A stretch of DNA of 63,136 nucleotides, counting the filler, from Asterionella formosa (taxonomy: Eukaryota), in NCBI GenBank assembly GCA_002256025.1. It is 19 parts of 19 records of this genome, joined end to end, with 100 filler letters (N's around TTAATTAATTAA, not from the genome) between each part and the next. Parts side by side here need not be neighbours in the genome. Positions count along the whole stretch, not along the records: positions 3,823 to 32,651 come from NKIB01001134.1; 18 more parts are not named here. The stretch is one strand, 5' to 3'. The translations under genes and the position numbers were made by a program. The notes under the pieces were generated by a model. It ran no database searches and had not been told where the DNA came from. It worked only from the letters and a program-made list of their open reading frames with translations. Positions 1,913 through 60,755 of the stretch are shown one piece after another (within the stretch, counting starts at the first letter, position 1; each line of letters starts with the position of its first letter).

Positions 1913-3722
1913 TGGACCTTGTTCCGTGATATTAAAATCCTCCTTGATCATATTTTTCATGTAGTCCACTGCATTCCTGGTACCACAAATAATTCCATCA
2001 TCCACGTAGTTTGCCAACAGCCCTTCAATTTGTCCATTGTTGTTATGGTAGATAAACAACATTGGGTCTATTTCGCTTTTCGTTATACCTTTCTTGCTGG
2101 TGACGCACTTCGCGAATGTCTTGGACCAGCATCTTGGAGCTTGTACAATTCCATACATAGCCTTAATTAATTTGCAGATATGTATATTCTGATCGATCCC
2201 TGTCAATCCTTCTGGGGGCTCAATATAAATGTCTTCGTCGACGTCAGCATTTAGAAACGCTGCTTCAACATCGATTGCTTCCGCTATCCAACCATAGTAC
2301 AAAGTAACAGCCAGAACAGTTTTTATTGTAGCATCACTTGCAACAGGAGCGAATGTTTCAGTAAAATCAACTCCCGGGATCTGTTCATATCCCTTTACAA
2401 CCAACCGTGCCTTGTATACTGTCTTTCCAGTTATCACGTCCTCCTTAATACGGAAGACCCATCTTGTCTTAAGAGCTCTCTTGTTCACGTCATTTCTCTT
2501 AACTATTGTCCATACTCCTCTTGCTTGGAAGTTTTCAAATTCTTTCTTTATAGCTTTCATCCACTCTTTGCGATCAGGTCTTACCATTGCCTCATTATAA
2601 CTATTTGGTAAACCTGGGTCCGATGCAAGACTTGCATTGAATACGAAATTTACTTCAGTTTCCTTATTCGAAGAAGCTTCCTCCTCAATCACATTTGGTA
2701 GTGAAGTGTCTGAAGTGAATTTAACATTTTTAGTTGGATTATACGATGAGTCCAACTTCTTCATTTCTCGTTCCAACTTTGCCTGTTGCTTCAAAACATT
2801 TCTCTTTTCTAGGTCAGAAATTTCATCACTCCTTGAGGTAGATTTTCCTTTTTCAGTGTCTGCGGTTGATTTATCCTTGTCGTCATCATCTTCCTTGTTG
2901 TCTGAACCTTCTGGTAGTAAATCTTCATTGTAGAAATCATCATCTAATCCATCATTATTGACTTCAGCTTCTGGTTGAACTGTTACTTTCTCTTTAGCAT
3001 TGTCCTTGTAGATTTTTCCTAGTCCGTCCGTAGGTGCGTTTGTTCCATGCCACTCACTCCACTTAACATCGCGTGTATTGATTACAGTGTTAGTCTCATG
3101 ATTATACATACGATACGTATCTTGGGAGTGGTCCTCCGAATAACCCAAAAAGACACACTTGAAAGAACGTGCGTCTAATTTCTTAATGTTGTGTCTTGCA
3201 GTAACCCATCCTACGCGCCCACATTGCTTGTATAACTTGTAGGGCCTTCTTGGATTCATTTCGCCGTAGAACATGTCGTCGGGACTTCTTTTAGTTACTG
3301 AGTTAACTGTACTATTTGTTAAACGTGTAGCTGTATGTACCGCCTCTGCCCATAATAGCCCTTGGTACTCATCTGTTAGTTTTGCACTTAGCATCATTGC
3401 TAGTGCCCTCTGTCGCACAATGACAAAACCGCGTTCCGCTACACCATTGTGTTGTGGAGTGTGCGGGGCAGTGAATTCCATTTTTATACCGCGATTTTCA
3501 CATACCTTTCTCAATTGTTTAGTATTCTCGCCTGCGTCATCGCAACGGATATACTTTGTCTTGTGACCGGCTCCGGCTAAACTTGATAGTAAAATTTCAA
3601 TGACTGTTCCGATATCGCTCTTCTTTTTAATGAAATAGCTCCAGCGCTTTCTTGTGTAGTCGTCCACTGCCATGACCCAGTACTGATTGCCAACAGCGGA
3701 TTTCGCGTAGGGTCCGCTGATG
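1913..3722 (-). mobile_element. Ty1/copia pol fragment (integrase, linker, reverse transcriptase), uninterrupted ORF
   Basis: Integrase VDDYTR, IRCDDAGE, PQHNGVAER. RT YKARLVVKGYEQIPGVDF, DVEAAFL, LIKAMYGIVQAPR, YVDD. IN-before-RT order defines copia. Confidence 0.96.
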
Positions 3723-5098: not shown

Positions 5099-5248
5099 TG
5101 GACCATTGGGATTATCCAATGTCATGATTTCTTAGGAAATTGTTGTTTGTGAAAACCTCATAATAACCAATTTAGTATGCGAAACTATATTGTTACCATT
5201 ATCATTTATATTATTCTTATATAATTATCAACGTTTGCTTGATTTCCA

Positions 5249-7068
5249 TAAATTACGTGGAGGCATGGCAACACAAAAATTATCTTTCCGTATCTGTTTC
5301 AAAACTTCTTGCGGTTTCAGAGACTTCCTTGGCTTGATTCCTGTGGTTTCAAAGCAGGAACAACAAATGCTGCCGAAAGTATGTTATGAAATTCATCAAC
5401 GCTCAATTCAGTAGTATCATTGCATAAGTTGTCTCCTCTTGCAAAAAACATACATTTATGAATTTTCATTTCAATTGAAATTTTCAAGGAACGAATACAC
5501 GCTAAGAGAATGGTTGTTGAGTTGGAGAAAATAACATTTCCCCAAATAAGTAGGTAGTTTTGCCTGAACGGAACTGTGTAGGAACTTGATCCATCTCCCT
5601 TCTCCCAGTTCACTTTGACCCAGTCAAACCATTATTGACCAGAGATTCCTGCCTTTGAATCGTTTTTCCATTTCGGATGGCAGTCCATCTGAAAATAGTA
5701 GTTTGGCCAGGAACGTAACTTTCAATTTTAGCATGATAATAAATGTCGAAACAGGCCCAACCCCATCTTCAAGACTTTTGATTCTTGCTATTTGTATCTG
5801 TTGCTGAATTCGCAAACATCAACATGTATTGATTTTTTAGAGGAAAGGGTTAAGAGATTTATGTCAGTTAGCTACTAAGATTATGATTGGTCCCCAACGG
5901 GAAATGATATCTCAAATTGGCTTACGAATGGCAAAATTTCATGGAATGAAACATTACCCTCATCTGATTAGGAAGTTCGCTCGGATCTCCTCTTAATTTC
6001 TTTGGTGGATATTTGGAGTCTTTTTTGAAAGAGAAATAGAAACAACCCAGTAAGCGTGTCAATGGACAATTACATCGGTGAAAGCATGACATTTTAACAA
6101 GATCATATGAAACAAGGCAGTTTGCATTGGCACGAAAAATTGTTTTTGTAAGTGATTCATTACATACAGAAAACAAACAAAAGAAGATGAGTAAAGTATA
6201 CATCAATGTAACTGAGGGAATTTCAACAGAAATTGATTTCGAAGGAATGATTCCGGATACAATGATGTTGCCTAGTAGGTCGCCTGAAAATTTGGGAATA
6301 TCGCCTACCAAAATCCATTCACCAGCCCTTCCTGTTAAAGATCAAGTTTCTGCTTCATCATTAAATGGTCTATGGACTATAGCAGGTGTCCCTAATAAGA
6401 TTGGGCATGTTTCACGGAGTAAGGATGCACCCTTGTCTCAATTGGTTCATCCTGATTTACCGAAGGGGGCCAACTACGTAAAGAGCATTGCGAATTCAGC
6501 AATAGATGCAAATAGCAAGAATCAAAATTCTTGAAGATGGGATACGGCCTGTTTCCATTGTAAGGATTGACTTTTATTATCATGGTAAAATTGAAAGTAA
6601 TGTTCCCGGCCAAACTACTATTTTCAGATGGACTGCCAACCGAAATGGAATGATGATTCAAAGGCAGGAATCTCTGGTCAATAATGGTTTGACTGGGTCA
6701 AAGTGAACTGGGAGAAGGGAGATGGATCAAGTTCCTACACAGTTCCGTTCAGGCAAAACTACCTACTTATTTGGGGAAATGTTATTTTCTCCAACTCAAC
6801 AACCATTCTCTTAGCGTGTATTCGTTCCTTGAAAATTTCAATTGAAATGAAAATTCATAAATGTATGTTTTTTGCAAGAGGAGACAACTTATGCAATGAT
6901 ACTACTGAATTGAGCGTTGATGAATTTCATAACATACTTTTGGCAGCATTTGTTGTTCCTGCTTTGAAACCACAGGAATCAAGCCAAGGAAGTCTCTGAA
7001 ACCGCAAGAAGTTTTGAAACAGATACGGAAAGATAATTTTTGTGTTGCCATGCCTCCACGTAATTTAT
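5249..7068. repeat. ~550-bp inverted repeat (arms 5249-5798 and 6504-7068)
   Basis: ORFs 5317-5613(-) and 6703-6999(+) are the same 98-aa translation apart from one residue. The inner parts of the arms are more diverged. Confidence 0.95.
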
Positions 7069-7327
7069 AACATGATTTCTTAGGAAATTGTTGTTTGTGA
7101 AAACCTCATAATAACCAATTTAGTATGCGAAACTATATTGTTACCATCATCATTTATATTATTCTTATATAATTATCAACGTTTGCTTGATTTCCATAAA
7201 TTACGTGGAGGCATGGCAACAAAAAAATTATCTTTCCGTATCTTAGTAGCTAACTGACATAAATCTCTTAACCCTTTCCTCTAAAAAATCAATACATGTT
7301 GATGTATATTGTGGTATGAATAAAGTG

Positions 7328-10014: not shown

Positions 10015-11014
10015 TTAGATGAAATCTAAACGTGCCTTGTTGGTACGTTCAATGGTCTGATTCATTGGAAGTAGTGCATCAGAACCATTCCATTTGAAAT
10101 CGGCAACCTCTGGGTCACTCTTAACTTCTTTGCCTAACTCCGGTTTCACTGTGTATAGCCGAGTTAGGCAACATTCGGCAAACCATTCCTGTTTGTGATT
10201 GGAAATGCCTTTCATACTACTTGGACCAGATAGGGCGGGCGGGATGTTTGATTCTCTTTTGGGAACAGAAAAAAGCACATTTGATTGATATTCTGTTTTA
10301 CAGTACCTGCAATTCACAAACTATAACATCAAACTTACATGTTCACAGCAAAACTTCTTGGTCTTGAAAGCTAATAAAACTCATAACCTTTGTGACAATT
10401 GATGGTTCAATTTTAGCTAAGCGAGAACGACGTTCTGATAAGGCTGCTGAAATTGAAGAGTCTTGATAACCTCGTCGTATGGACGAGTTTTGAACCGAAT
10501 TACGACGCACCTTTGAAGTGATTAAGTTCATTGACCAATTGATAATATCCTTTGGCAAGTACAAAATGTTTTTCCCTCAGGTTGTCATGTACTTGTTGGT
10601 CCATGCGATTAGAAAATTTATGATATGGTACCATGTCGTCCATCTGCATCCGGGAGTTATTAATGTCATCATCGACATGAGCCATTTTTCTTGTATCAAC
10701 AACTGAAAAAGAAATCTTATCATCGCTGTCAGTATCAATTACGGGATCCTTTGTACTAGTAGCTGATGGTGTCCTCATCAACGATGGGGTATTACCCCCA
10801 ACTTCTCCCAATCGCTGATTGGGTTGCTTTGGATAATCGCCTTTTCGCTTTTTCTTTGTAAACTCATTTTGGAACTTGCTTCTTTGTTCCATACCGGCAG
10901 TATTTGCCACATGTTGCTTGTTTCCATGAACCTCTTTATGGTTTCTTGAAGACATTGTACTACTTGATAACTGTTGTCGTCGTCTTCCTTAAAGTTCGAT
11001 GATCTTAAATTCAT
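10015..11014 (-). pseudogene. Fragmented ORF(s) of unknown function, element cargo
   Basis: Overlapping same-strand ORFs 10778-11014, 10500-10955, 10343-10564 and 10015-10317 (CRYC). The first ATG abuts the 92-bp array. Confidence 0.35.
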
Positions 11015-11285
11015 TTACTGTCCTGCTGCGGTAGCAGTAGTCATAGACATATGGTGTTCTATTGCTTGCTTATTACTCCTACTACCGGTACCACTTTTCA
11101 GTTTCACGATCATACAATCCTAAAACTATGATGATTTACTATCCCACTACAGTAGCAACAGTCATGAACATATGGTGTTCTTTTGGTTTTTAGTTTTACG
11201 ATCATACGATCCTAAAACTATGATGATTTACTGTCCCACTGCAGTAGCAACAGTCCTGAACATATGGTGTTCTGTTGCTAGTTTA
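11014..11285. repeat. 92-bp tandem array of palindromic units (about 3 units)
   Basis: Units start with TTTACT at 11014, 11135 and 11227. A longer version lies at 54164-54640. Confidence 0.92.
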
Positions 11286-12964
11286 CTACTCCGACTGCCC
11301 CCAGTATATTACTTACTACCTGCTACTGGTACTCTGTATGTATATATGATATATTGTTATTGTCATATGATGTACCGGTACACATGAAGAGCTCCCAACC
11401 AAAAAAGGGGCTTAAACAATTTGCTACCAAAACCCTGGCGGCAATTGAACGGTCTAAATAATTAGTTTCAACGGATGTAGAAAATATCGATGCAAACAAA
11501 TTTCAGAAACAATACCGGTACAGGGCGGTAGTCGTGGAAAACAATGGACATATAGTGCATTGAGTATTTTCGAATTATGTATATGCGAGTATGATCATCC
11601 CAACCATATCAGATGTTCCATATCGAGAGCGCGTTTGAATTTTATAAATGTATAACACTTAATATATATATATATTTACAAATTTTATTTCTATATTCAT
11701 GGCATAAATATTTTTGAAATCGTTCTGTCATGTTAACAAACAATGCCTGCAGCTGCATGAAAAGATACGTCGTAGTAAAGCACATTAAAAGAAAAGAAAG
11801 TTTACGCAATACATAACGAAAAACATTGTGACTTCGACACATTGCGCATTCAGAGGATGGAGAATGTTTAAGGTAATGAAGCCATCAATGTGGTACCTGG
11901 ATGACAATCGTTGGGAGGCAGGCAGCACAACAACAAATTGTTAACTAAACGCAGCCACATGTCCTTTTTTCTCAGTTGATTCAACAGCTCGTTTCGATTG
12001 TTGGGGAGCGCCAATGTAAAACAAAACCAAATTGCGTTAGTGCTCTTGTCGCTCGTTGGACCTATTCACTTCTGTTGGAACAACACTGACAAAGCATTTA
12101 CCTTCTCTCAAAGTGAAGCTGACAAAAATTGAATCGGTAAGTTTTATTCGACAATATCGGATACCCAAAACTTACTTATTCAAGAATTTACTGAAAATTT
12201 ACTGTAATAGACTTATGCATCAGTTGCATTGATTTGTGTAAGTGAAGCAAGAGGATACGGTGGAATTGTGTGTTGTTGTGTCAATGTAACATGATGACTA
12301 GCTAACAAATCATTCCTTCTCATTGTTACTGTTTCTGCATAGGACAATAAAACCAATCAAACAACGGAATAGTCGGTGAGTTCAGAGTGTCACTAATTGT
12401 AGGGAGAAACGCGAGACATTAAGCACTGCATGGCGCAAGATTCAGAATAGAGGAAGGAAAGGGCGAGACAGGATCAAGATACATTGAGCCGAGTAGAGAG
12501 AGAAATGTTGGGTTGCTGGCCTGTAGAATCATAGATAGCATTGCTAAATTTATCAATTAAATTAAGATCAGTTCCAATCCTTTTTTAACAATCCTTGTAA
12601 TTAGAAATATGATTATGTTTAAGATAGATATATGATGAAACAATTCAAATGATAGCATATAAATTAGCTGATTTTAGGATGCATTGTAGTTATAATTTAC
12701 ATCGGGCGATCACGAGAAGTGAAAATAATATGAGAAGGTTTATGATATTGACGAGAAATGTTGTTGATCAGTTTATATACATTGTGTGATGATAATGCTT
12801 CTATTATCATTATACTTCAAGGTCGGTAACATATTAATAAATCATCATAGATACAAGATACCTTGATCATATTTTTGATCCAAAAAATATCATATATACG
12901 AAAATCCTGTGCCACTTAGTGTACGATACCCTTGATCCTATATGCATGATACTTTTTATTTACA

Positions 12965-15624
12965 GACGGTCCTTGACGCGTACGAAACCGGCGGGAGAGC
13001 TCTTCTGTTTGTGGGTAAAACCGTTCTGCTCTCGTTGTAGATGCTTGCAGGGTACTCGCTGCAGTTGCCAAACTTGTCCCCCATTGTTGGGCCAGTGTGG
13101 CTGCGTCCACAGTTGAGCAGCGATCTGTGCTGGAAGTGGCTCCAACACCATGCACAATGTCGCCATGTGTGCTAAAGAACTCCCCAGTTGTATCTCCACG
13201 AGCAACATTTTCATAAACCTTCTCGAGGTTGGCAAAGGACTGCGAATAAGGGTCCCATGCTGCCTCGGAAGTAAATATGACATGCCGACAGTTGACTAGT
13301 TCATCGTCGGTAGGGAGGCAAGTAGTGAGATAGCTGATGCATCCATGCATCTTGAATGGGAAGAAAAGGTCTTGTTCTGGAACATAAATTCCGTGCAAAG
13401 ACTTTCCTTGGGATTTTTGCTTGGGGCAGGTGTCGACTACAAAACCATATGTTCGACACTGATTAGGGTTGAGGAGTGAATTGTCTAAACGCTTGCCAAA
13501 GTAAAGGCCTTCGTTCCAGACACCAATGATGGTTTCCTGTACCCCTGTTAGGTCAATTGCTGTTGCACATGTGCCAATTGGAACATCTGAAAAGGATCCG
13601 AGCTCCCCAGAGAAGCCCTGAACATATGCCACTCGATTGCTTTGTTCTAGTAGGCGGAATGTTTTCCCAAAACAACATGTGTTGGCTCTGGAATCCACTT
13701 CCAGAGGAGCTGTGACCTTTAAGTCATTAAGATGCTGTATGACTAGTGCCTTTCCAATGTTGTAGCCCACTTTACAGTGAGTCATCACACCAGCAAGCTC
13801 CCTACGGGTGCTGCTTGTTGAGCTGACCTTTTGCTTTTTGGTTGGGTTCTCAGAATGCCTATTCCAAGAGTCGCGGCCGAATGATGCGGAAGCAGCGTCA
13901 CTTGGCATGTGACTGGGACCTTCAGTCGCATCATCTTCAGAATCGGCTTGCTCATTTTCATGTCCTTCACTCGATACCGATTTAACAGAACAACCTTCCT
14001 CTTTATTTCGACCCCGGAGAAGATAGCTCACATATTTGCTCCCAAGTTTCCCTCTAGCTTTCTTCACTGCCTCAATTACATTATCTGGAATATAATTGTT
14101 CTCGCCCTGTTGTTTCTTATCGCCTATCCCTTTTCCTTTCTCGGAATTCTTTCTCTTTAATCCTTTGATTTTTTACTTTAGTTTCTTGATTTGCCGATTT
14201 GGAGTGCTATTTTGACCATCATCACCTGTCTGAGTTAATGTGCCAAGTAGCGCCATGCGTTCTCCAATCTTGGCCAAGGCATGACGAGGACTTTTCTTTG
14301 CCTTTTTGTCAGTAGCAACAATCTCAGCTGCTATGCCTTTGGTCTTTTCATGGAGGATCATGCTGACAAGAAAGCAAACTTGGGTATGCTTGTCCACTCC
14401 AGCCTTCATGCTTTCAAGTTCTTGGTGATAACTCAACAATGTATTGCTGAACTTATCCCAGGGGAAGTTTTTCGTTGCCCTATACTGTAACGTTTTGAGT
14501 TTGTTCCTCACTTCTTGAACCCTGGTTTCATTTTTGGAAGTACTCTGATATTGAGAATGCATGCTCAAATATGCAGACCGCCCATCCCCGGGGAACTTCC
14601 TTGAGTGTACTGAGGCGCCGCCATTAGCAAGGGCCATTTCAAACATCTGACTGACCTTGAAGTTATTGCGGTCAAATCTTTTGCCCGAGAGTGTGGTACC
14701 CTTGATCTGACATCTAATAGACGACTCTTCTTTCATTGCTCTAACAATAACATAGAGTAGGGGATATCCTTCTTCATTTCTAGAGTTAGAGAGATAAGCT
14801 CTCCACTTTATATTGAAGGTCTTATAAGAAATCTGATTGCCATTAAAAGTAGGCAGAGTCAGCCCATCCTTGGCACCCCCCACAGCTCTCCCTTTAGTTG
14901 TGCCCTCTCTTTCTTCCTGATTGAGTAGAGATGCGAGAGCGTCATCATCAAACTTGGTGAGATTCATGAGGCCAAGGTTCCTACCTGCCTCTTGTTGCTG
15001 TCAAAGTCATCGATGTAAAACCCTAATGCGTTGAATAACCAGGACCCGAAGTCTTGTCAACCCTTCATAATGAAAGAGTTTGTCCAAAGCATCTTTATCG
15101 AAAAGGCGTGCAAAAGATTTCGCTGAGACCGCCCCATTCTCTATCACGATATCTGCTTGGGCTGGGGTGAGTCCAAAGGTGATCAATTTCTCTCGAAATT
15201 GCGGCTCTGCCAACACACCATTAAACTCAATGAACACTTGCGCCATGGCAAGTTGATCACCAACTGAAATGCCCGATGGATCGTCATCATCATCGTCGCT
15301 TTCGTTGCCTCCACTATCGCCTGAGCTATTGCTGGGGTTGTCTGCCAGTCCAGAGGAACTGTCACTCTGACTCCGATCGCTTGCTTGCAGGTCTGGTGCA
15401 GGGATTCAGACCTCCTGAATCACTTCAGGCCGCATTCCCACAACTCCTTCCGCCTCAACGACGTCATCTGGCGGCTCCAGAAGCTCATCTTCTCCCTGGG
15501 CTGCTCGAATTTGCGCTCTTGTCGCTTGTTGAGCTGCAATGACATGCTTCGAGACCCTACCACCCTGTCGAATCCTCTGCTTGGTTATTGGTGACATGAT
15601 GATAATGACCCCAACACTGAACAA
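12965..15624 (-). mobile_element. Diatom-type (CoDi-like) Ty1/copia gag-protease region, degenerate, truncated before integrase
   Basis: gag-like LPTFNG...WRAYL...GYPLLYVI and DGRSAYLSM...Y. Protease LEVDSRANTCCFG. LAQQWGTSLATAASTL...LSRRFRT. Stops at 15406, 15007 and 14173. Confidence 0.85.
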
Positions 15625-16827
15625 CGATGCGCAAAAGCGGACTCCCAGAACACCGAAACAAACGTTGCTTGCTGGCCAGCAGTTTTCCCTTCGAATATTA
15701 CAACAATCAACCGATAAAGGCTACTGAAGAGGCTACATGGGTCTGATAAACCGACTAATTCTACTATTAAACAGGCGATGGGAAGAATAATGAACCTAAT
15801 GTTGCAATTAGAGCTATCGAAGGGTACCACACAAAAAAGAAGTAATCACAAAGCAATGTCCAACACAACTTGTTGGATGGGAAAAACTCGACATATTCCA
15901 GACAAGGATTACCCACTCAAGGATGACCAAAATGCATGCTGGTCCTACAGGCCGCTAGTACCAGGCGCCTGCATGTCATAAGACAGACATCGCAGGACTA
16001 CACCTAACGGTTTCCCCGTTGAGCGTACGCCTGAGACACCCTGAGGTATACCCAGAATTTACCACGGCATCATCGTGTCCATGAGTTGAGAAGCGGAGTT
16101 TGTCTGTATTTCCCTCTGGATGATAAGCTCTGGACGTTCCAGGAGCATCAAACAACAGTAGATCAGATCCACTTTCGCAAACAACAGCCAAACAGAGCGC
16201 GTTGTTTCCAATGGAGGACACAACCTCATCACAGCGTTTGCGAGGACCTCCATGGTAATCAACAGACTCTTTGTTGCGACATGCAGCTTAGCAAGACATT
16301 TGGTAGGTTTACCTGTTCAGCAACGAAATAAAGTGATGCTTCTCGCTTTCGTGATAGGGCAAGAATTAAATAATGTTCTGTGATGGTGGAGACATACCAA
16401 GATGATGTCTGTCGCATTTTGGCTTCGAGAAAACCATCATTGCAAATACAGAATGTATTGTCTGAAACAAAAATGGTTTTATTATATTCATACATGAATA
16501 CTATGAATAAGGGAAACGTACAGTATGCAGATGATACCGGTGGATTTCTAGATCGTATTTTAATATTATTATTATTATTTTTATATTATTTAGTTTCTCA
16601 GCAATGCTTACCACATTTTGATGATCACTGTACCAATGTCACCACAGGATAAGGTGCACTGGGTATTGAAATCACAACATTTGTTTCTGGGAGAATGGCT
16701 GCAACCGGTTTGTCTGGTTCACCTATAGGTTGTTCGCGTTGGGAGCATTTACAGACTGCTTGCAAAGGAACCTTTTGAACGAAAACACGCCAGCAAACAA
16801 AAACAACAACACCAAAAAGCAAAGGGC

Positions 16828-17309
16828 TCCTAGAGCCTTTGAAATAGCTCCAATCTCAATCATTAAGCGAGAAAACCCGAATAACATGGATGAAACAACG
16901 CCAAAGGTGAAAAACTGAACAAATAGATTAAAATATACTTTCACGAAGGCACTGGCAAATTCTTCGGTCCTCAGAACTAACCCAGCCAGCACTTGAGAGG
17001 AAAAGGATGGCATGTGTGTGAGCTGTCCATGAACTTGAATCTTGACACAACACAAAATACCAAGTAGAAGGGTTCCATGAGTTGCAATGACCTGTGACAA
17101 AACTTACAAAAGATAAAGATGACAGCAATCCACGAAGCTGTTATTTTCGGCTTTAGATATGTAGCTCCCAACGGAGGGTAAGCTTTGGCGAGAATGATTG
17201 CCAATATGGCCAAAATCATGAACTCATTTGCGATATAGAATGTAACCGCTCGTTTCCAGAGCTTTGATTGGTAGCACTTGGGATGGTCTTGTGGGGGGCT
17301 CATCGGCAT
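16828..17309 (-). pseudogene. SLC10A7: 5' fragment of a sodium/bile-acid cotransporter 7 (SBF-like) gene
   Basis: NEFMILAILAIILAKAYPPLGATYLKPKITASWIAVIFIF, then a phase-1 GTAAGT..AG intron (17107-16992), then LLAGLVLRTEEFASAF...FNLFVQFF. Similarity stops after ISKALG. Confidence 0.75.
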
Positions 17310-17550
17310 CCTAAGGAAGGGGCACTTCGTGCATGAATATTTGCTTTCCCTCGGCGCACATTATGGTCATTCCTTTCCTCAAAATCTCGTTTGACTACAA
17401 TTAACACGCAATCTAATAAACGATTCAACAAATGAAAGGGAGAGCAAGATTTCTGGCATTTTCGAGGATGAAAGATTAATACCAGTATTCATTACCATCA
17501 CCTTGGCACTATATTCTGTTCGAATATTTCATGGTACCAGGTACCAGGTA

Positions 17551-17646
17551 CCTGCAATTTGCCGTATTTTTGCAGGAGCTAGAGATTTAGCTACCTTTAT
17601 CCAAGATTAAAATGTTAGTTCAAGCAAAATGACCGCAACTTGCTGG
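17551..17646. mobile_element. 96-bp TA-flanked MITE (Tc1/mariner-type), copy 1
   Basis: TA|CCTGCAATTTGCCGTATTTTTGC...GCAAAATGACCGCAACTTGCTGG|TA. Homologous copies at 37056 and 60756. Confidence 0.85.
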
Positions 17647-18379
17647 TACCACCTTATTACCTGATGGTACACGGTAACCAGGGTACCGGTACTGCCGGAA
17701 TTATGAGTGATGCCGGTATATAGCGAGACCCAATGTTCGTAGGCTGTGCGTTGTTCGGTCCATGGCGGAGGCGGCAATTAAGTACCAGGTACCAGCAGGT
17801 ACAGTACCGGTACAGGTACCCTGGTACGACCTTATTACCTATCAGCGAATTCCGCGCACTATATTCTAAAAATTCCACGTACTAGCGGTTTCAACCTACC
17901 AGTACTTCATTCAAAGTCTGACCGGCTCACCAATTCCAAAATTATATTAATCTCAAAACATTTCCATGGCATATTTATATTACTGGTGGCTGTAACCGTT
18001 ATAAAGTTTCAAACGGAAAAGCGCTGCCATCTTTCACAGCAGAATCGCTGACTACCAACTTCAACCTGCTGACTGCAGACTTCTTATTGATAACTGCTGA
18101 CTGCATTTGCTGACTACCAGTACTGACTTCATTTGCTGACTACTGGTACTGACACAAAGTTGCTGACTGCTAACTTCAAGTTGCTGACGTCAAGCAACCT
18201 ACTTTGTACCCAGGAAGAGACCAACTATCGGTACCAGTGTATGAATCGTGTTTACTTTTTCATATATTTGAATTAACGATGGAAACGCATCTTTTCGTTG
18301 TTGGGATGATACTAAAAGCGATGCCTTCTACATTTATACTATTGGGAGTAACACAGAGGTATCTGGTACTCCGCAAATA

Positions 18380-18579
18380 GTAAAATGCTGTTAAAAAAAC
18401 ATACAGATGATGATTTTGAAATAATTGACTTGACTACAAACAACCAGACTTTTTTTGACTATGAATTTGTTGAATACACAGTAAAATGCTGTTAAAAAAC
18501 ATACAGATGATGATTTTGAAATAATTGACTTGACTACAAACAACCAGACTTTTTTTGACTATGAATTTGTTGAATACAC
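18380..18579. repeat. ~101-bp direct tandem duplication
   Basis: GTAAAATGCTGTTAAAAAA...TTGTTGAATACAC occurs at 18380 and 18481. Confidence 0.93.
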
Positions 18580-18628
18580 TGAGGTCTAGTACACTACATG
18601 CAACAAAAAAGAATATGCTTTTGCTGGA

Positions 18629-18920
18629 GTGACAATTGAAATTGCGGATGATGAGATCAATCAAGCACACCATGCAAGCATCAAAAACAGTGAGAGAAAA
18701 ATTTGCCCATCAGGTGATGAAAATGAACGTTGGTTAGCAGATATAGGCGCTACCAGTCATATTGTTACTATATTCAATAAGTATATGACAAATGTGAAAG
18801 CAGTAAATGTATGCATTGTTTTAGGCGATGGTAAAGAATTCATTTGCAAGGAACGCGGAAATGTCTGAGAGCAAAACAAAGTGACCAATGAGACATTCTT
18901 CCTTACGAATGTCCTATACT
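18629..18920 (+). mobile_element. Ty1/copia aspartic protease remnant
   Basis: WLADIGATSHI (degenerate WxxDSGAxxH), VLGDGK, then a LTNVLY-like motif after a stop. Confidence 0.7.
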
Positions 18921-19387
18921 ATGGGTTGCAGAAATTCCCTGGAACTAAGAATTTATAGGAGCTATTTTTGAATGACATGATTCCGTTTGAAATATTCAAA
19001 TCAGTGGAAATTTGCGCGTTCTTACATACTAGATTCCTTTTTGAACTAGCTAAAAATATAGATTGACATTGTACATCACTGTATGTATATGTACCAACGA
19101 TTACTTTTCTTATGTACGACCCGGCGGCTCGGCAAATATTTGAAAGTGCAATCAACGAGTGGTACCTGGTACCAGGTACCACACGTATGATGTCCAATGA
19201 TGATCATCTACTGGTACCCGCACTGGAAATAGTACCAATACCGGCCTACCGGTACACGGTACAACCAAAGAAATGTTACATGTGTATCCAATGTGGCCGG
19301 TGTGGGTTTGCAATTCCTCTCACAATCAAACGGAGTCGAGTATTTCGCCATAGCCAATCAGTTCATATATAATGATACTGCGCGCAC

Positions 19388-19785
19388 TCACAAGACTACC
19401 ATTCCAATGATGACGTTTCGGCGCTAAGTGGTTCTGATTCCGATATTTCGGAGACCGTAGAAAAGGCCGATTTTGTCGAATTTTTGGACAACGATGCATA
19501 GCTCAACGTTGGCTGGTTCTGAAGCCGATTTAGATACATAGGTAACCTTTAAATAGCATGAGTATATAACTTCTGGCGAGAAACTGCAGAAAGGAACTTC
19601 GGTTTTTTTACTATGCCAAATAAAGTGATTTCCCCCGAAATTTCTTGTCTTTATAGCATAGTTAAAAAACCGAAGTTCCTTCTGCAGTTTCTCGCCAGAT
19701 CCTATATCCTGACGATGTATAGCGTTGACCTGTGCCCCTACTTTTGTCAATGACTGTATCTAAGCATATGGAAAGGGTGTATAAT
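19388..19785 (+). mobile_element. Terminal region of a Mutator-like element family, with an internal 44-bp inverted repeat
   Basis: 19388-19660 is a diverged reverse complement of 44188-44465, which lies downstream of the Mutator-like transposase. IR arms at 19572-19616 and 19656-19699. Confidence 0.7.
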
Positions 19786-20399
19786 GGTGAAAGCTTCGTT
19801 TAGCGAACACATTTATGTTTTACTTGTAAGAAGTGTCTGTTTGAGTACTCTGACTCAATATTATTTTTTAAACCCTACCTCTAAACTAGGGTTGAAATGG
19901 AGGAAAGGAACCTTAAATTCATGATATATGTAATTTAGTACCTGGTACCGTATGCATACTTAAATGGATCTGTATTATCTTGTGATTGTGCTCATCAGGG
20001 CAATTGAGCCGGAGAAAAATCATAGGAATCAAAATGGCCCCGGAGAAATTTTAACAATCGCCGAAACTATTTTCAATCAGAGGCAGTACCATGTACTCTT
20101 GTTAAAAATTACATATAGACAATAGACCGATGGAGGTGGTACCAGGTAACATTTATTAGATTCGATGACTAAGCCTTTATATGTGACCCACTCGACATAC
20201 CCGATAAAGATAATCTACATATGGTCACGCATAAATGATTGATGGATGACATCCTGCATCTTTTGTTTCACGGACATCTTGACGATTACTATACCAGGGT
20301 ACCGTGAAGGTACCGGAAAGGTGGTGAAACAAAAAACTGTGATTGCTCTTGGTCTCACACTTTCATCGGTTCGAAAAATTCATTGCTTGATCTGTGAAT

Positions 20400-21560
20400 A
20401 TGCTTTCCAAACTCGTAATCGCTTCCCTACTGGCGGCATCCGCCGTCTCTGCTCAAGAAGTAGTTTCCGTTTGCCCCACCACCCGCCCTGACTCCAACAC
20501 AACCTGCTCGATGGATCTCAAATGCTCCTGGGCCTTGTCCGACACTACCGGAACGGGGCAAGAGACTTGCTCCTGCATTAGTGGCGGCACGTTCGTGGAA
20601 TGTGAAGCGTGGATGGTGGACATTCCGTTAGCCTTTGAAGCCCCAGTGGACCCAATGGTAACCAAGGAATTGGTGGCCAACAACTACCTCGTGTGGCAGT
20701 GCCCCGACACTGCCATTTTCCCAGTGCCCGGGGACCCCGTCCCCCTTTGCCCAGACTCCATTCCTCCTCTCACGTGTGACTACAAGACTGACTCAGCAAT
20801 GGAAGGATATACGGGAGGCACCAAGTGCTCCTGCGAGGTGGATGCAGTGGATGGAACTAACAAGTTCGTATGCTTTATTTGGCAGACTCAGGTGACGTCT
20901 CTTCAAATTCCGGAACCTACCATCAACTCAACTGATGTCATGTTTCAAACCGCTGTGCTTTTCAAAGATCCTGTGCTAGATACTCCTACTGTTGCGGGAG
21001 TCAATTCCACTGCTGTGGAATTCACCTTTACTACCAATGATGTGGAAATTCCGTCCGGAACCGACCCAAATCGGCCAAATCAAGTGTTTTCCGATAATGC
21101 TAACATAACGGGTCCAGTGGGAACTCTCAAGGTGGATGTTATGGTGGATCCAACGGATCCTCCGCCAGTCTTGATTTCTGGGGCTCCTCCAGAAATAATG
21201 ACCTTTGCCCCTCCAGTAGCCGACCCCGTCCTCATTGACACGACCCCCATTGTTCTGACAAGCACTACCGGAACAAATTTAGATACTTCCCCTACTTCGG
21301 CTCCCTCCGCTGAGGCAACTTTCGTTACTCTTACTTCCGGCACACCTCCAGTTGTTACCACTTCTGGTCCCATTGTTCTTACCAATACACTTGGTGGTGG
21401 CGGTACAAAGCCAAACAAGGGCAAGAAGCCAAAACCTACGGCCACAACTTCAACAACAGGCACGACGGCAACAACGGGCACGAAGCCAAAGAAGGTGAAG
21501 AAGATCAAGTTGGGCTTACGAGGAGGGAAGAAAAATCATAACAATAAAAGCATTCCATAG
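20400..21560 (+). CDS. Secreted protein: signal peptide, two Cys-rich modules, Thr/Pro-rich region, Lys-rich C-terminus
   Basis: MLSKLVIASLLAASAVSA|QE signal peptide. Two CP...C...C...CSC...F.C modules. Tail KPNKGKKPKP...KPKKVKKIKLGLRGGKK. Intronless; ATG at 20400. Confidence 0.88.
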   Translation: MLSKLVIASLLAASAVSAQEVVSVCPTTRPDSNTTCSMDLKCSWALSDTTGTGQETCSCISGGTFVECEAWMVDIPLAFEAPVDPMVTKELVANNYLVWQCPDTAIFPVPGDPVPLCPDSIPPLTCDYKTDSAMEGYTGGTKCSCEVDAVDGTNKFVCFIWQTQVTSLQIPEPTINSTDVMFQTAVLFKDPVLDTPTVAGVNSTAVEFTFTTNDVEIPSGTDPNRPNQVFSDNANITGPVGTLKVDVMVDPTDPPPVLISGAPPEIMTFAPPVADPVLIDTTPIVLTSTTGTNLDTSPTSAPSAEATFVTLTSGTPPVVTTSGPIVLTNTLGGGGTKPNKGKKPKPTATTSTTGTTATTGTKPKKVKKIKLGLRGGKKNHNNKSIP

Positions 21561-21927
21561 AATGAATTGCTCTACCGGTATATACAATCATCCATGGAGA
21601 CTGATTATATACATACCGGAATATATTTAATTTTGTGTATGTACTGGTAGTAGGCAACACGGTTGATCCAACGTCATCACGGCTCCTCATCATATTTTAA
21701 CATGGATATGCAATATCATGATTTTAGGCAACAATACCATACCAGTAGTCGACCGGACCGGCATCTGGTGTGCACAAAGATTAGATCACGGGAAGGCTCG
21801 TCAAAGTCGTGTTCGCATTTTTAGCCATTTGCATCACCAACAACAGTCAATCAGATTGATACTACAATTATATATAATTATTGTACTGTATTACCTTCAC
21901 GGTATATCCAAACGACAAAAGTAAAGA

Positions 21928-22521
21928 ATGGGCCGTTCTCAAGTGAAATACAATCAAACTCATGGTCGTCCTGGAAACCAAAAAGGCAGACAACCACCAT
22001 TAGCTGCTGCATCATCTGCATCATCATCATTAGCAAAGAAAGTTGCATCCGCGGTAAATCTTGGTGACAATTCATGGCGCTACGACAAACAAGAACTACC
22101 TGATGATGTGAACATTCATGACGACACCGTTATGGCATTAACAAGTTTTGGTAACTACACTGCATCACGAGAAACAACAACAACAACAACAACAACACCA
22201 CACACATTATGGAACGAACAGAGAATGCAGGACTTGCTCATCCAAATGGCTCAACTTCTTTCCACAATGACACTTTCTGAACAACTTCACATACCAAAAT
22301 ACCTGGTTGATGACGACATTATAGTCCAAGATTTGGCAAAGGGAAAAGAACCACCAACGTTAAAGACTCAAGTTGCAGTGCTACCAATGGAGGAACAACC
22401 ACATGATGCTACAAGTACTACCGGTAGTACTCAAGTTGATGAAAATCAAAATAACAATGATGATGAAGAGAACATTGAAGAAATGGATTTGAATGCTTGG
22501 TTAGATAGTGTGATTTCATGA
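21928..22521 (+). CDS. 197-aa low-complexity protein, Aven-like
   Basis: Basic Gly/Arg N-terminus, LGDNSWRY (compare Aven SNWDRY) and C-terminal DLNAWLDSVIS (compare Aven LEDWLDSMIS). Confidence 0.7.
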   Translation: MGRSQVKYNQTHGRPGNQKGRQPPLAAASSASSSLAKKVASAVNLGDNSWRYDKQELPDDVNIHDDTVMALTSFGNYTASRETTTTTTTTPHTLWNEQRMQDLLIQMAQLLSTMTLSEQLHIPKYLVDDDIIVQDLAKGKEPPTLKTQVAVLPMEEQPHDATSTTGSTQVDENQNNNDDEENIEEMDLNAWLDSVIS

Positions 22522-24496
22522 TATTCTCAAGCAAGAAATACTGCTATAATCATCGAGGCATCAATTCAATCTAAGCAAACTCTTGCCCCCTCTGCATGGC
22601 AGAAGGAGTTCCATAGTTCTGTTTCTGTTGCTGACATGGACACCATTTCTGCAGGACCAACAACAAGTGATAAAAGGAGGAAATGAGAGAATAACTGCCA
22701 TGAGAATGGTGGGATGAGGGCATTGCATCTGAATGATATAATTGATGGGATGAGGGCCTACATGCACAGCACATTATAGAGAATTAGTACCACACTGATT
22801 CTACATGCATTTTCTAACTAGTCATGAGGAAATTGTACATTTTGGTTAGCTTTAAAAGGTCAATGAAATTTGATTGATGCTATGAGAACTGAATCCCATT
22901 ATTAGCATGTAATTTTCTTACATTCTTAAAATTAGATTGTTCCTAAAACCACAAATACCAAAGTACTTTTTGGTTTTGGTGCAACAAGAAGAATGGGGCC
23001 TTGTCTTGAAAGTATTTCCAGCATGGCTGTTTCCAACAGCAAAATCACTAAGTCTATCTGTCATTCATTTGTGTGTATCAATTGCTGCATCATTACATTT
23101 CTCACATCATTGCATTGTTTGATGGATTCAATAAATTTGATATGGAAGGGTTCCAGAAAGTCCTTCTTGCAGGTTGAGCTGGTCACATGATGTTATCAAG
23201 GTTACTTCTGTTGCTGTTTGGGATTCTGTTCAATGGGACAACACCAACTTGCATAAGCTGTATTTCAGGATTCAACAAACAGTTCCTGGTATGATACCAG
23301 TAGTTCAGTGGTTCTAATGTACATTTATTTACCACCAATAAAGATGCTTCAACCCTCTGAATTGAGCCACCACCAGCCAATTGCAACAACAATTGTAAAA
23401 GGCAGCTAGTATATAGTATGACATGTAGTATTCTTTATTCTTAAAACTGGTACAGTACCAGTATGACAGTAGCATCAGATACTTACTGGTAATCTCATTA
23501 GGGAGGTGACGGAAATACTAAACATATACAAAAATTGTGTACAATTCTAAAATCGACCTTGCATCACATTTTCCAAAAGAGGAATGCAAATGAACGCAAA
23601 GTACACAAAAGTATGCAAAAGAGACCATGAATGTCCGGAGACGAATGCAGAAAGACATTTTATGTCTGTGTTTTTCCAATTCATTTGTCGCCCGGTTTTC
23701 GTGGTCTTTTGAGGTCCTCGTTTGCATCATGCACTTTTTTGTGGTCTTTTGAGAAATTTTGTTATTCGATATCTCTCTGAGTGATACGACTCCAGCTGGT
23801 ACCTGGAACCCCTGGTACGAGGGATAGCAAGAGTAGGAAACAAAGGAGAAATCGGTCTGAATTATAGTATCTTATGTATCAGTCCTTTATAGTGGGCGGA
23901 ATATTTATATATATATATATATCATATTTAGCCATGTATTAGAAGCAATGTTCATATTGCCCGTGGATGTTTAATGCCATGTCAGAGCTCAAACTTGCTG
24001 GAATGAAAATGACGGTCATGCATACTTACTTTTCATGAAGCACGCGATGAATACGTGACAATAATTCCGCAAGATTTTTGGAAATTCTTGCGAGGGCTGT
24101 CACGCATGATTCAAAATGTTGTGGAATGTTCGACGTAGCTACATACCGGTAGCGAGGAATGACGGTGCAATTAGCACACCTTCCAGTCAAAAGCAAGCAA
24201 CAAGCAAACTTGGCAGCAACACACTTCAGCATGTGGCTACCGGGTAGTTTCATGCATTGATCATAATGATGATTCGAAAACAAAGAAACACGAGTAAAAA
24301 TAAGATCCATGCATGTAGTAGCAAATACCGGTATGTAGGAGTATTGTGCAATACATACCGAGGAAAATGTGTTTCATAAGCCACGGCCGATCTACAAAAT
24401 AAATTCTGCTCAGCCAAACGAAAAGACAGATTCGAACTCTCATTACTACAGCAGTTCCGCACCGAAAGATATTCATTGTGCTATCCCATCACGTTG

Positions 24497-25465
24497 ATGA
24501 CCATGACGACTAAAGCCTCCAGCAAGGTGGAGTATGCGATGGTCGATACGGCTGGAGGCATCGACGGATTCATCGATGATGCTGCGGACACCTCGCTGCC
24601 CATTCCAGCTGCCCAGGCCGTTCCCATGATTTCTGTGGTTTCTCCTGCCAATTTGCCGGGCGGGTACTCCTTCCAAGCGGAAGACTCGTCGGGACAGCTA
24701 TTTACCGTCGTTGTGGTGAGTGCTATCTATCGTCATGTGCGGATCCACTCGCAAAAGTCACTGGTTCTCACCCGAACCGAACTTGTTTCCATCTGGCAGC
24801 CCGACGGCGGCGTGGAGGAAGGACAAACCTTCTCTGTTCCCGGGTCGTACCTTCCAGCGGACACGCGGGACAGTATTCCTGTTGGACATTGGAGAGATGA
24901 CTTGTGCAACTGTTGTGTCTACGGACCTTGTCACAATCATTGTTGCCTTGCCTGTTGGTGTGCTCCGTTGGCACTAGCCCAAGTGATGGTCCGCATGCGC
25001 CTCAACATGTTCGCCCGTCGATCCACTAACCCATATACTCCAACCTTTCAACGCATGGTTTTTCTGGTTGCGACGTATTGGACCTTGACTCAAGCAATAA
25101 ACGTAGTCTTTCCTATCTTGGTTGCCACTTCGGGTGGTATCAATGAGCAAGGACAACTTAAACTATCCGCATTTGCTGAAGTGTTGGTTAGTATTCTCCT
25201 TCTGTTGCATACGTGGGGTCCCTTGTTCTTTTGGATCTATTTGATTGTTGCCATTGCTCGGACTCGTTATCATATTCGATCAACTTATGCCATACCAACC
25301 AAATGCTGTGGTGACACTTGTTGTGAAGATGCCGCATGTGCCATTTTCTGTGGACATTGGACTACTATGCAAATGGCTCGCCATACTGCCAATTATGAAA
25401 GACATCCTGCCACTTGTTGTACTGAGAATGGCCTTCCTGATCATATCAAACATTCCACCAACTGA
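24497..25465 (+). CDS. PLAC8-family Cys-rich membrane protein
   Basis: GHWRDDLCNCC, CCLACWCAPLALAQ, TRYHIRSTYAIP, CCEDAACAIFC...QMARHT. Diatom-type VVSPANLPGGYSF / PDGGVEEGQTF N-terminus. Probable 84-nt in-frame intron 24716-24799 (GTGAGT..CAG). Confidence 0.93.
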   Translation: MTMTTKASSKVEYAMVDTAGGIDGFIDDAADTSLPIPAAQAVPMISVVSPANLPGGYSFQAEDSSGQLFTVVVVSAIYRHVRIHSQKSLVLTRTELVSIWQPDGGVEEGQTFSVPGSYLPADTRDSIPVGHWRDDLCNCCVYGPCHNHCCLACWCAPLALAQVMVRMRLNMFARRSTNPYTPTFQRMVFLVATYWTLTQAINVVFPILVATSGGINEQGQLKLSAFAEVLVSILLLLHTWGPLFFWIYLIVAIARTRYHIRSTYAIPTKCCGDTCCEDAACAIFCGHWTTMQMARHTANYERHPATCCTENGLPDHIKHSTN

Positions 25466-25585
25466 AAGTATCAAGGTACAGCACAGTATGACATTAAAAA
25501 AAATTCAGCTTTGTGTAGTTTTTGAGCTCGGCCAGTACCTTTTCAGTTTTGATCCTCTGCTGCTACAAGATATGTTCTATGGGCG

Positions 25586-25778
25586 TGTCAGAATGTGTCT
25601 GTTAGGCTGTTGATGTCGACAGGTGTCCGAAGACTAGGTAGTCTGAGGAATGTCTAAACGGAAATAGACAGGATTTATATAGCAGAAGAATCTGCAGACG
25701 AGCGGCGTGAGAAAGATCTTGACCGGTCATTCCAGGGCAGTACTGGAGCGCGCTAGAGTAGCGCCATATATTTCAACA
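25586..25778 (+). mobile_element. Solo LTR (193 bp) of the TRIM family, with 6-bp target-site duplication
   Basis: TGGGCG|TGTCAG...TTTCAACA|TGGGCG. Near-identical to the LTR at 33857-34053. Confidence 0.9.
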
Positions 25779-26317
25779 TGGGCGTTGGTCTGATTTTACT
25801 TACCGGTAGTTGTGATATCTAGTTCATGTTGCTCCACACCTTGGGGCCTCTACGTACAGGTATACTATGTACTATTATGTACGTACCGGTATACTTTCCA
25901 AGTCCCTCGATCGACAACCTGCTCGAATGCGATGATAATATATGCATAATGAATGATACTTGTGCTTCCATACCGGTAGTTTGTCCAACAAAATACCAGT
26001 GTATATAATAAAGCTACGATACGCACTGCCGGCGGGATCTTGCTTGCGCCCTTGCTTGTTCTTTTCTCGTCTTCTTTTCGTCGCTCGTGTGATTGCCATG
26101 ATCCTTCTTCGTACATTATCGCTCTCGCTATATCATATATATATAACAAAGAAAAAATTCCAACACATTTGATTTTCCGATCATCCTAGAATTTGGAACT
26201 CGGACACCATTGTTATTTTTGATCACACTCCCACACTCTGACACTCTCACACTCTGACACTCTGACACTCTCAACACACACAAGAGAAACGAAGAAGGAG
26301 CAGACGAGAGCACCAAC

Positions 26318-29300: not shown

Positions 29301-29515
29301 CATTATTGGGATTCCAGTCATTGGCACCACTGCCCTGCATTCAACAAATTCGATTGCCAGTGTTGAACGATAATGAGGCTGAAAAGCTGGCTCCACTCCC
29401 AACGTCGTCAACATGTATGAATCTACTCAAACTTCCCAATTATCGAAGTAAAGAATTACTTCGTAAGAAATTAATTGATTCGATAGAATCTGGAGCAGGA
29501 TTTGAATTAACCTAA
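26318..29515 (+). CDS. HECT E3 ubiquitin ligase, UBE3B/UBE3C (UPL6/7)-like
   Basis: N-terminal IQ motif IQKVWRGF, IPQALPFERRV, EAGIDGGGVFKEF, FLKFMTSCSRQPLLGF, catalytic LPTSSTCMNLLKLP, terminal GAGFELT. 1065 aa, no intron needed. Confidence 0.97.
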   Translation: MFDGNHRSRKEVDLSGRTRRRAVTTSSNNKQSVLEQSRRLREDRRLQQLKHLSSICIQKVWRGFSSRWNIQRRLMATATATSPLDMSIVLSDPILRAHGGIICSSAIRGKLLTLRFSEMTKASEVTFQRIVAATLGELKLLATVANNYHDSYLLLQLLHQCFQGTRLSYSLYRLLVLAWRAWADHAPDSIISLSLWEACTTFVNELSSPLLTASMLLLVHPENFLTCAKAVMFDSSLDSMMAVIHSEMENMTNDSPVKDLLTGGELTVLTNALNWYLSLSQAKKYPHSILYLLEYMLTQRNDLTWLLALQVKGENIRDYFYGSQVTPVGATTNDDDSISSTDSGDDDVEMTDSNNKKQKSARLPTSEVHTIPKLDRLYQNYIQSQRKSVLVLPNDPKSIIFLVEELTKPVVWLDFGSCALSERASEKTRLVYVRLLATLLQACCSFKTSTACPLLSQLAFHESLLNNVWRHILVLMHNSNAVNNRPSEESSITLALTVFCDLFAQHLITLSDSIFLNTYTTLNYNPVIIAEYVITTIRNVLHDLYWQRPVVADDIPSNRVRLLLSGTKLWNSLYERWCRLVRVSPFCEESTWWFPRLASRHDDDDAVKSSRVNDVSMMRGITTNDDDALAETFRDAKMARVLTSIPQALPFERRVNLFHALLEAEHMTTQDETADFRRALIRMAEQGGEMLEFNGRERISIHRDMLYEDSMKQLNQLGQRLKGRVQVTFINQHGAQEAGIDGGGVFKEFLDHLIKEAFDPNAEHEMHLFTITPLQTLAVNMETVDQKEILTHYEFLGRVLGKAVYESILVEPQFCLPFLNQLLGKQNSLEDLKNLDEEFYSNLMKLRSMSETDIKNLGLTFELQLGPSRLIPLLPGGASLAVTNLNVIHYVHLVAHYRLNVVTASQTRAFLRGFRDLIPASWVRMFSAHELQKLVSGDDTIRGIDVASLKQAMQYAGGYHPSQEIIGWFWEVVDELTPEQQRKFLKFMTSCSRQPLLGFQSLAPLPCIQQIRLPVLNDNEAEKLAPLPTSSTCMNLLKLPNYRSKELLRKKLIDSIESGAGFELT

Positions 29516-29614
29516 AAATTAATGTGGGTCCTTTTGTAGCCCAAGTTGTGTCTTGATGTATGATTATTCTTATTTAAGTGATGGACGATAGTGTAATTTG
29601 GAAAAACGTTTCAT

Positions 29615-33856: not shown

Positions 33857-34405
33857 TGTCAGAGTGTGTCTGTTAGGCTGTTGATGTCGACAGGTGTCCG
33901 AAGACTAGGTAGTCTGAGGAATGTCTAAACGGGAATAGACAGGATTTATATAGCAGAAGAATCTGCAGACGAGAGGCGTGAGAATGATCTTGACCGGTCA
34001 TTCCAGGGCAGTACTGGAGCGCGCTAGTAGAGTAAGCGCCATATATTTCAACATGGTAGCGCTCGTTAGTACAAGTGGTACGAGGACATACGTGAAAACC
34101 AGAGGTCGACAGTTCGAGTCCTCAGCAAGAACAGAAAGAGAAAAAAAGAGAAAAGAAAAAGAAAAACAGAGACGAAGAAAACGAGAGGGCACTATGAGAA
34201 TTCCTGTAGGAAAGGATGTGTCAAGCATACACATTATTAGGATGATGTGGTATGTCGAGCATCAACAGGGGAGGGTGTCTGAGTGTGTCTGTTAGGCTGT
34301 TGATGTCGACAGGTGTCCGAAGACTAGGTAGTCTGAGGAATGTCTAAACAGGAATAGACAGGATTTATATAGCAGAAGAATCTGCAGACGAGAGGCGTGA
34401 GAAAG
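33857..34405 (+). mobile_element. TRIM: non-autonomous miniature LTR retrotransposon
   Basis: 5' LTR 33857-34053 (TG...CA). PBS TGGTAGCGCTCG at 34054. 222-bp internal region. PPT AGGGGAGGG at 34267-34275. 3' LTR starts at 34276 and is truncated near 34405. Confidence 0.9.
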
Positions 34406-60713: not shown

Positions 60714-60755
60714 TACTTTTAAAGTGCTTAAGAAATAAGGTTGCGACCACTACTA

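Follow-up and report, generated by a model that had tools for sequence, protein, structure and literature searches.

The window analysed here, i.e., the whole stretch of 63,136 bases, is a pseudo-molecule of 19 contigs joined by 18 spacers of the form N44-TTAATTAATTAA-N44, the first of which lies at 1813-1912. The contig c3 measures 28.8 kb (3823-32651), and the other 18 are of around 1.8 kb each. As the window is made of joined contigs, any reading that links its distant parts is unsafe. For the same reason, the copies compared below come from different contigs and are not paralogs along one stretch of a chromosome; they are repeat copies or haplotigs on separate contigs of a freshwater diatom bin. 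The preliminary description of this DNA had spoken of paralogous copies. The differences that it reported between them stand, but their placement as paralogs on one stretch has to be given up, as they lie on separate contigs and some of them are high-copy repeats.

The window is eukaryotic. It carries an intron-less ORF of 1065 codons for a HECT ligase (26318-29515), whose named relatives are solely diatoms (Mayamaea, Nitzschia, Thalassiosira, Cyclotella, Skeletonema, Fistulifera, Seminavis and others), with 28-37% identity, and for which a 99% match is found solely in public-run assemblies. Adjoining it on the minus strand is a serine carboxypeptidase S10 gene (29615-31723), present as two ORFs about 40 bases apart; this split is probably due to a short intron. 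A 10-kb stretch of c3 is present in the runs of 13 studies, the labelled ones being freshwater, lake or algae metagenomes. The mobile-element fragments and other repeats of the window are as follows.

1-1812 (c1): mobile-element fragment with a Plavaka transposase
1913-3722 (c2) and 38468-40275 (c7): mobile-element fragments with Copia-type integrase/RT
5123-7305 (c3): long inverted repeat with arms at 5248-5815 and 6488-7068 (95% identical) and additional direct and inverted pieces at 5123-5295, 7071-7243, 5816-5881 and 7240-7305; the whole has the appearance of a foldback-type element some 2 kb long
11013-11300 (c3, about 3 units) and 54163-54663 (c15, about 6 units): 92-base tandem repeat inside a high-copy element that reaches at least 12149 (c3) and 55516 (c15)
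18379-18579: 100-base tandem duplication, 99% identical
19537-19734: MITE-like palindrome unrelated to the MITE discussed below; its two arms, each some 71 bases long, match at 70% (the inner 26 bases at 96%), and its ends are other than CC...GG; its bin is about 900 times deeper than single-copy DNA
42281-43285 (c9): second long-armed element; c9 begins in its 229-base inverted repeat (42281-42509 against 43057-43285, 98.7%), the outer end of which is lost at the contig end
44188-45994 (c10): mobile-element fragment with a Mutator-like transposase
51807-53612 (c14): mobile-element fragment with a Harbinger-like DDE_Tnp_4 domain (51808-52626)

Public-run contigs from X1, X4, X6 and X7 were aligned to 11320-31319. 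Going by the aligned contigs, the depth at 11320-13320, 17323-19990 and 25327-25993 exceeds that of the single-copy region at 20-31 kb by a factor of hundreds to thousands, where depth is not to be equated with copy number. Owing to this depth, with the same limit on its meaning, the c3/c15 pair is taken to represent copies of a high-copy repeat rather than two alleles. The c5/c19 pair is 97.4% identical and may represent either alleles or repeat copies. All of its 10 substitutions and all of its 5 indels fall within about 700 non-coding bases (34693-35367).

Short insertions at TA sites

An all-vs-all blastn of the 19 contigs was carried out, and indels were taken from alignments with at least 85% identity over at least 150 bases. 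The preliminary description had pointed to six places at which one copy reads TA and the other TA-x-TA. All six were confirmed to the base. Such an arrangement of TA, core and TA is called a scar here, the word standing for the arrangement itself. The six differences are listed below, along with two motifs that are specific to the contig c6.

11083-11090 (c3): scar TA-CCGG-TA (TACCGGTA); the sister copy in c15 has a plain TA at 54237-38
54730-54737 (c15): scar TA-CCGG-TA (TACCGGTA); c3 has a plain TA at 11366-67
61581-61588 (c19): scar TA-CCGG-TA (TACCGGTA); c5 has a plain TA at 34900-01
34820-34826 (c5): scar TA-CGG-TA (TACGGTA); c19 has a plain TA at 61492-93
34784-34788 (c5): scar TA-G-TA (TAGTA) with no tandem duplication; c19 has a plain TA at 61459-60
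34025-34029 (c4): TAGTA; c3 has a TA at 25754-55; a TAG stands beside a TAG, and a slippage duplication is equally possible
37915-37922 (c6): TACCGGTA; the other three copies of a four-copy repeat are without it
37950-37960 (c6): TACTGGTACTA in the same four-copy repeat, whose other three copies are mutually too close for polarising the change

Five of the six differences are seen as clean blastn gaps, namely +CCGGTA at 54732 and 61584, +CGGTA at 34822, +GTA at 34786 and +TAG at 34025. The insert at 11083 is on the border of the 92-bp tandem repeat. In the best alignment, it disappears into a gap of 28 bases; it was confirmed by eye. Except at 34025, the inserts are not copies of the neighbouring bases. 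An excess over slippage of this indel class had been named as a check in the preliminary description, and it is borne out by the comparison, in which 6 of the approximately 32 distinct indels between contigs, 11083 included, are +CCGGTA, +CGGTA or +GTA at a TA. Three of the five indels between c5 and c19 belong to the class. Separately, 11523-11528 reads TACAGGGCGGTAG in c3 and TACACGTAG in c15, and a short form (with 3 + 1, or 4, bases left out) is present in contigs from X4, X6 and X7; a single TA may have given rise to two different scars here.

The same motifs are abundant in the window. It was observed that TACCGGTA is present 28 times against an expectation of 0.27, and none of 100 dinucleotide shuffles reached this number, the largest count being 3. 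For the other motifs, the expectations were obtained from an order-1 Markov model. TACCWGGTA occurs 15 times (0.25 expected), TACCAGTA and TACTGGTA together 17 times (1.2 expected), and TAGTA and TACTA 154 times (79 expected). Four-base cores made of G and C alone can stand between two TAs in 16 forms; CCGG is the only enriched one, and the other 15 are found 0-2 times each. Similarly, when the 16 palindromic two-base flanks of CCGG are compared, TA..TA alone is enriched, with 0-2 occurrences for each of the other 15. Of all the CCGG sites in the window, 28 out of 125 are TACCGGTA. The octamer thus lies about 100-fold above expectation and is tightly specific for the TA flanks and for the CCGG core, which adds to the case made in the preliminary description.

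Sequences one mismatch away from TACCGGTA are found 47 times, where 9.3 would be expected, and they are led by the CpG transitions TACTGGTA and TACCAGTA, to which the 17 occurrences given above belong. This halo points to scars of many ages that decay like neutral, probably methylated, sequence would. It also implies that the CCAG/CTGG class is not necessarily a separate joining product. The two sequences may have arisen from CCGG scars by CpG decay and not by CCA+G joining, and the class, therefore, gives no independent support for a CCA terminus.

The 61,552 non-N bases were scanned with a scar grammar, i.e., a TA followed by one or more units of core and TA. This gave 65 scar sites holding 71 units, or about one per kb. 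Single units make up 59 of the 65 sites. The other six are double, for which random hits on the 3744 TAs would give around one by a rough estimate. Of the 64 most specific scar motifs, just 2 are located within ORFs with a length of 150 aa or more, although such ORFs account for 38% of the bases.

A TA-flanked MITE with CCW...WGG ends

The preliminary description had made its reading dependent on a family that targets TA and has CC, CCG or CCW termini, and one such family is indeed present in the window, in the form of a TA-flanked MITE with CCW...WGG ends. The element is short (about 96 bp), non-coding and multi-copy, and its inverted ends span 23 bases, or 25 with the TA. It is laid out as TA, CCWGCAAGTTGCGGTAATTTTGC ... 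GCAAAATGACCGCAACTTGCWGG, TA, and the end motif along with its target is TA followed by CCWGCAAGTTGCGG. From the outside inward, the ends read CCA or CCT, i.e., TA-CCW...WGG-TA. The 25-base end pattern, TA included, has five matches in the window at 0-3 mismatches, against 0.00 expected. Three copies are present.

17549-17648 with the TAs, element 17551-17646 (plus strand): MITE copy 1, CCTGCAA...TTGCTGG
60754-60853 with the TAs, element 60756-60851 (plus strand): MITE copy 2, CCAGCAAG...TTGCAGG, with TACCGGTA 7 bases to the right
37053-37152 (minus strand): MITE copy 3, decayed; one end reads CC-GCAAG next to a TA with a loss of 1 base, and the other end is GGGCAGCAAG without a TA

In X1, the depth of the bin that contains the MITE exceeds that of single-copy bins about 180-fold, depth again not being copy number. 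Besides the MITE, no other element of the type TA-CC...GG-TA was found in the window, where the remaining matches are either arrays of scars or pieces of long inverted repeats.

JGI metagenome contigs were scanned with the MITE end pattern, and 10 loci with 11 ends were obtained. A TA stands directly outside 6 of the 11 ends (L001, L005, L006, L007, L009, L010). Whole copies of the MITE are found in L005, with TA on one side, and in L006, with TA on both, and their flanks are scar-rich. In L001, 12 TACCWGGTA and 18 GGTACC motifs lie within 1.2 kb. The loci L002, L003, L004 and L008 were set aside, since they have neither a TA nor scar-like flanks, and are regarded as chance matches or as matches from other organisms. 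None of the 10 loci matches the window outside the MITE, so they offer no orthologous sites. Over positions 440-1000 of L009, two leucine-rich-repeat ORFs flank a solo MITE end, which comes just after a GTAAG splice-donor-like site and is preceded by TACCAAGTACCAGGTA; this end may have been inserted into an intron.

The duplication of TA is indicated by copies 1 and 2 and L006, which have TA on both sides, and from the scars, which have two TAs against one in the sister copies. The scar cores CCGG, CCWGG, CGG and G consist of left-end plus right-end bases of the MITE. Each of the four whole MITE copies has one CCA end and one CCT end, an outcome with a chance of 1 in 16 at this sample size (n=4). 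With such ends, 3-base overhangs that pair at their last base could give exactly CCWGG.

Double scars are found at the following places, among others.

17535-17550: TACCAGGTACCAGGTA, two CCAGG scars directly left of MITE copy 1
19163-19178: TACCTGGTACCAGGTA, a perfect 16-base palindrome
37168-37183: TACCTGGTACCAGGTA, near MITE copy 3
37246-37260: TACCAGGTACCGGTA

By eye, GG is present just outside the TA at 8 of 13 MITE ends, in comparison with a background of 7% (binomial 5e-7). A MITE end of this kind either abuts a scar or sits in a GG-TA-CC context. Beyond copy 1, at 17651-17845, a 12-base direct repeat of ACCTTATTACCT encloses about 165 scar-rich bases (TACCGGTA at 17684 and 17805, along with GGTACC motifs), and this repeat may be the duplication of another insertion. 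Joints from 17550 to 19160 in contigs of X1, X4, X6 and X7 were considered as deletions; their sides are of 18-22 bases and lie on GGTACCAGGTACC arrays, and they are read as cross-matches.

The direction of change could be established in two cases, and both are insertions and not deletions, as the preliminary description had supposed. One is the MITE copy in L001, which in an alignment of seven copies carries TACCGGTACCAGGTACTGGTA, a series of three scars, at a place where each of the other six copies reads a single TA; thus, TACCGGTACCAGGTACTGGTA is an insertion in L001. The other is 11083. The internal paralogous segments at about 11285 (c3) and 54655 (c15) read GACTG/GACTA-CCCCC without the insert, and hence the insert was gained. 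At 34025, the third copy aligns ambiguously. No site with all three states, i.e., filled, scarred and intact, was encountered in the window, among the 10 metagenome loci or in the 12 of 39 indels listed, nor any site that was filled in one copy and either scarred or intact in another. These 12, which come from the alignment of contigs of X1, X4, X6 and X7 to 11320-31319, include no CCGGTA-class indel between strains. The long single-copy pieces of that alignment also carry gap letters, for instance 26 in record 14 of X4 and 25 in record 24 of X6.

For the transposase, Pfam was run on a set of 10 ORFs, on 82 of the 97 stop-to-stop ORFs with a length of 100 aa or more and on 150 of the 193 ORFs of 65-99 aa. 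The ORFs left out (15 of the 97 long and 43 of the 193 short ones) overlapped identified genes or were already in the set of 10. No IS630-Tc1-mariner or Tc1/mariner/pogo transposase was found by Pfam in these ORF sets from the 61.5 kb of the window; the DNA-transposase matches were limited to Plavaka, Mutator and the DDE_Tnp_4 fragment, and Copia-type RT/integrase was also found. In L009 and L010, the MITE end is followed by other sequence, and no transposase ORF was seen there. The MITE would belong to the IS630-Tc1-mariner superfamily, going by its duplication of TA, by its inverted ends and by the kind of footprint.

Origin of the insertions

The micro-insertions are probably excision footprints of the Stowaway/mariner type, left by a TA-inserting cut-and-paste family that is represented here by the MITE of about 96 bp. 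The preliminary description had already read them as transposon excision footprints, and this reading has gained support, as it was refuted neither by the enrichment, nor by the two polarised cases, nor by the family. The following course of events is envisaged. The element would insert at a TA and duplicate it. The transposase would then make staggered cuts inside the element ends, such that each flank would retain its TA along with 1-3 terminal bases, i.e., CC or CCW on one side and GG or WGG on the other. End joining would lead to TA-CCGG-TA, TA-CCWGG-TA, TA-CGG-TA or TA-G-TA, where the CGG core would result from a TA-C+GG-TA join and CCWGG from a TA-CCW+GG-TA join. Each scar would add a TA, and elements would re-insert nearby, leading to double scars and to scars that abut element ends. 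The scars would later decay via point mutation, fastest at CpG. The staggered-cut chemistry is presumed by analogy, being carried over from the Mariner/Stowaway literature, and each individual scar would likewise be ascribed to excision.

Templated repair is an improbable alternative. Here, a polymerase would repair breaks at TA in an error-prone manner, as happens in theta-mediated end joining; it would prime on a nearby ...TA, copy CCGGTA from an existing motif and re-anneal at the TA; the motif would thus spread locally without a transposon at the site. Scars are clustered, as such copying would have it, and a second TACCGGTA is present 13 bases downstream of 54730 and 19 bases downstream of 61581, i.e., in two of the three +CCGGTA events. 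However, no further copy is found within some 290 bases of 11083. Templated repair also leaves the origin of the first motifs unexplained, as well as the scars that abut element ends and the fact that the core is made of the terminal bases of a TA-flanked element in the window.

Selection on a cis-element is quite unlikely to be the cause. It would take TACCGGTA and GGTACC as binding sites, for instance of a palindrome-reading transcription factor, maintained or gained in intergenic DNA. The perfect palindrome and the strong enrichment limited to non-coding DNA are what one would expect of such sites. Clean 6-base insertions at TA within repeat copies and within a MITE are not, and the graded cores CCGG, CCWGG, CGG and G fit the products of end joining rather than one binding site. 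Further, the one-mismatch derivatives show CpG decay, as for unconstrained sequence. It is possible that some scars were later co-opted.

There is similarly little to recommend replication slippage of a GGTACCA-type microsatellite, with the lone motifs as decayed remains of arrays. Slippage may operate on comparable sequence; L001 has runs of up to five GGTACCA units, a 14-base tandem duplication with CCGGTA distinguishes c5 from c19, and 34025 can be read as a TAG-TAG duplication. Nevertheless, single-unit sites predominate in the window (59 of 65), and the CCGGTA inserts at 11083, 54730 and 61581 are not copied from adjoining bases; slippage lengthens arrays and cannot seed them at unrelated TA sites. 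An assembly or sequencing artefact of the metagenome bin, which the concatenation of short contigs in the window might bring to mind, is hardly credible, given that the stretch is found in runs of 13 studies and that the same MITE with scar-rich flanks is present in contigs of other metagenomes.

If the insertions are excision footprints, the cycles of insertion and excision would be very frequent, as the preliminary description had proposed; the figures that bear on the rate are about one specific scar per kb, and three scars against 10 substitutions in the c5/c19 pair. The window holds 3 MITE copies in comparison with about 71 scar units, which suggests other families with the same end bases, a long history, or both. 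A broader proposal can be made, though it is rather doubtful at present. According to it, excision and not slippage might be the main source of small non-coding insertions in this diatom lineage, and the process might feed itself. The scars might create TAs in a GG-TA-CC context, which the element would prefer or re-hit by local hopping, and they might seed double scars and GGTACCA arrays and, genome-wide, a palindromic CpG-bearing octamer at about one per kb. As part of this same tentative proposal, the family might act as a sequence-specific indel mutator with a rate comparable to that of point substitution, going by the three scars and 10 substitutions of the 97%-identical pair.

Relation to known systems and implications

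Tc1 and Sleeping Beauty leave footprints that consist of a TA, terminal bases and a TA; how long the core is depends on the stagger of the cut and on the way in which the two overhangs are joined, and the cores come from CA...TG-type ends. The diatom scars share this layout. Unlike those of Tc1 and Sleeping Beauty, their cores come from CC(W)...(W)GG ends, and CCGG gives a perfect 8-base palindrome with a CpG. The hAT elements make 8-bp duplications, and a hairpin is opened at their excision. As with hAT elements (Ac/Ds), small and often palindromic inserts are found at the donor site; the Ac/Ds palindromes, however, derive from the flank, whereas the diatom core is constant whatever the flank. 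The PIF/Harbinger-Tourist elements (mPing) are similar in having non-autonomous members of the MITE type, and a DDE_Tnp_4 fragment of that superfamily is present in the window, but the diatom scars keep two TAs along with element bases.

PMC4561436 describes the excision of Mariner and Stowaway elements as keeping both 2-bp target-site duplications together with pieces of the element end. It further describes precise excision and a 3-bp duplication for PIF/Tourist elements, and footprints that are palindromes of flanking DNA for Ac/Ds. Similar to the Stowaway MITEs and Mariner-like elements described there (for example, rice Osmar/14T32; PMC4561436), the diatom MITE is a short non-coding element with terminal inverted repeats, a TA duplication and two-TA excision sites. 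It differs from Stowaway in its diatom host, a freshwater species, in its CCWGCAAG... ends, which are apparently unrelated, in scars that are far denser (about 1 per kb), and in the presence of double scars and arrays.

In the main texts of the openly readable literature on footprints, MITEs, mariner elements and genome-wide excess, neither this signature nor such a diatom family was reported. Searches with the TACCGGTA string led to cloning primers, and those with CCGGTA combined with footprint, transposon or excision led to unrelated papers. The mechanism is a textbook one; the novelty, as far as the literature was searched, lies in the host and the element family and most of all in the density.

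To our knowledge, the DNA transposons of diatoms have been little studied. Excision footprints are usually observed singly, in genetic assays. Here, the probable footprints stand out as a feature of genome composition, with an octamer about 100-fold above expectation, scars at a density of roughly one per kb and a share of about a fifth in the small indels that separate repeat copies. Caution is needed with palindromic motifs that are enriched in promoters of such genomes, as these are not necessarily regulatory. If the pattern is true genome-wide, it would provide a natural record of cut-and-paste activity in diatoms and a simple strain-typing marker for lake metagenomes. It would also be a case of a transposon that shapes the indel spectrum of its host and makes its own targets.
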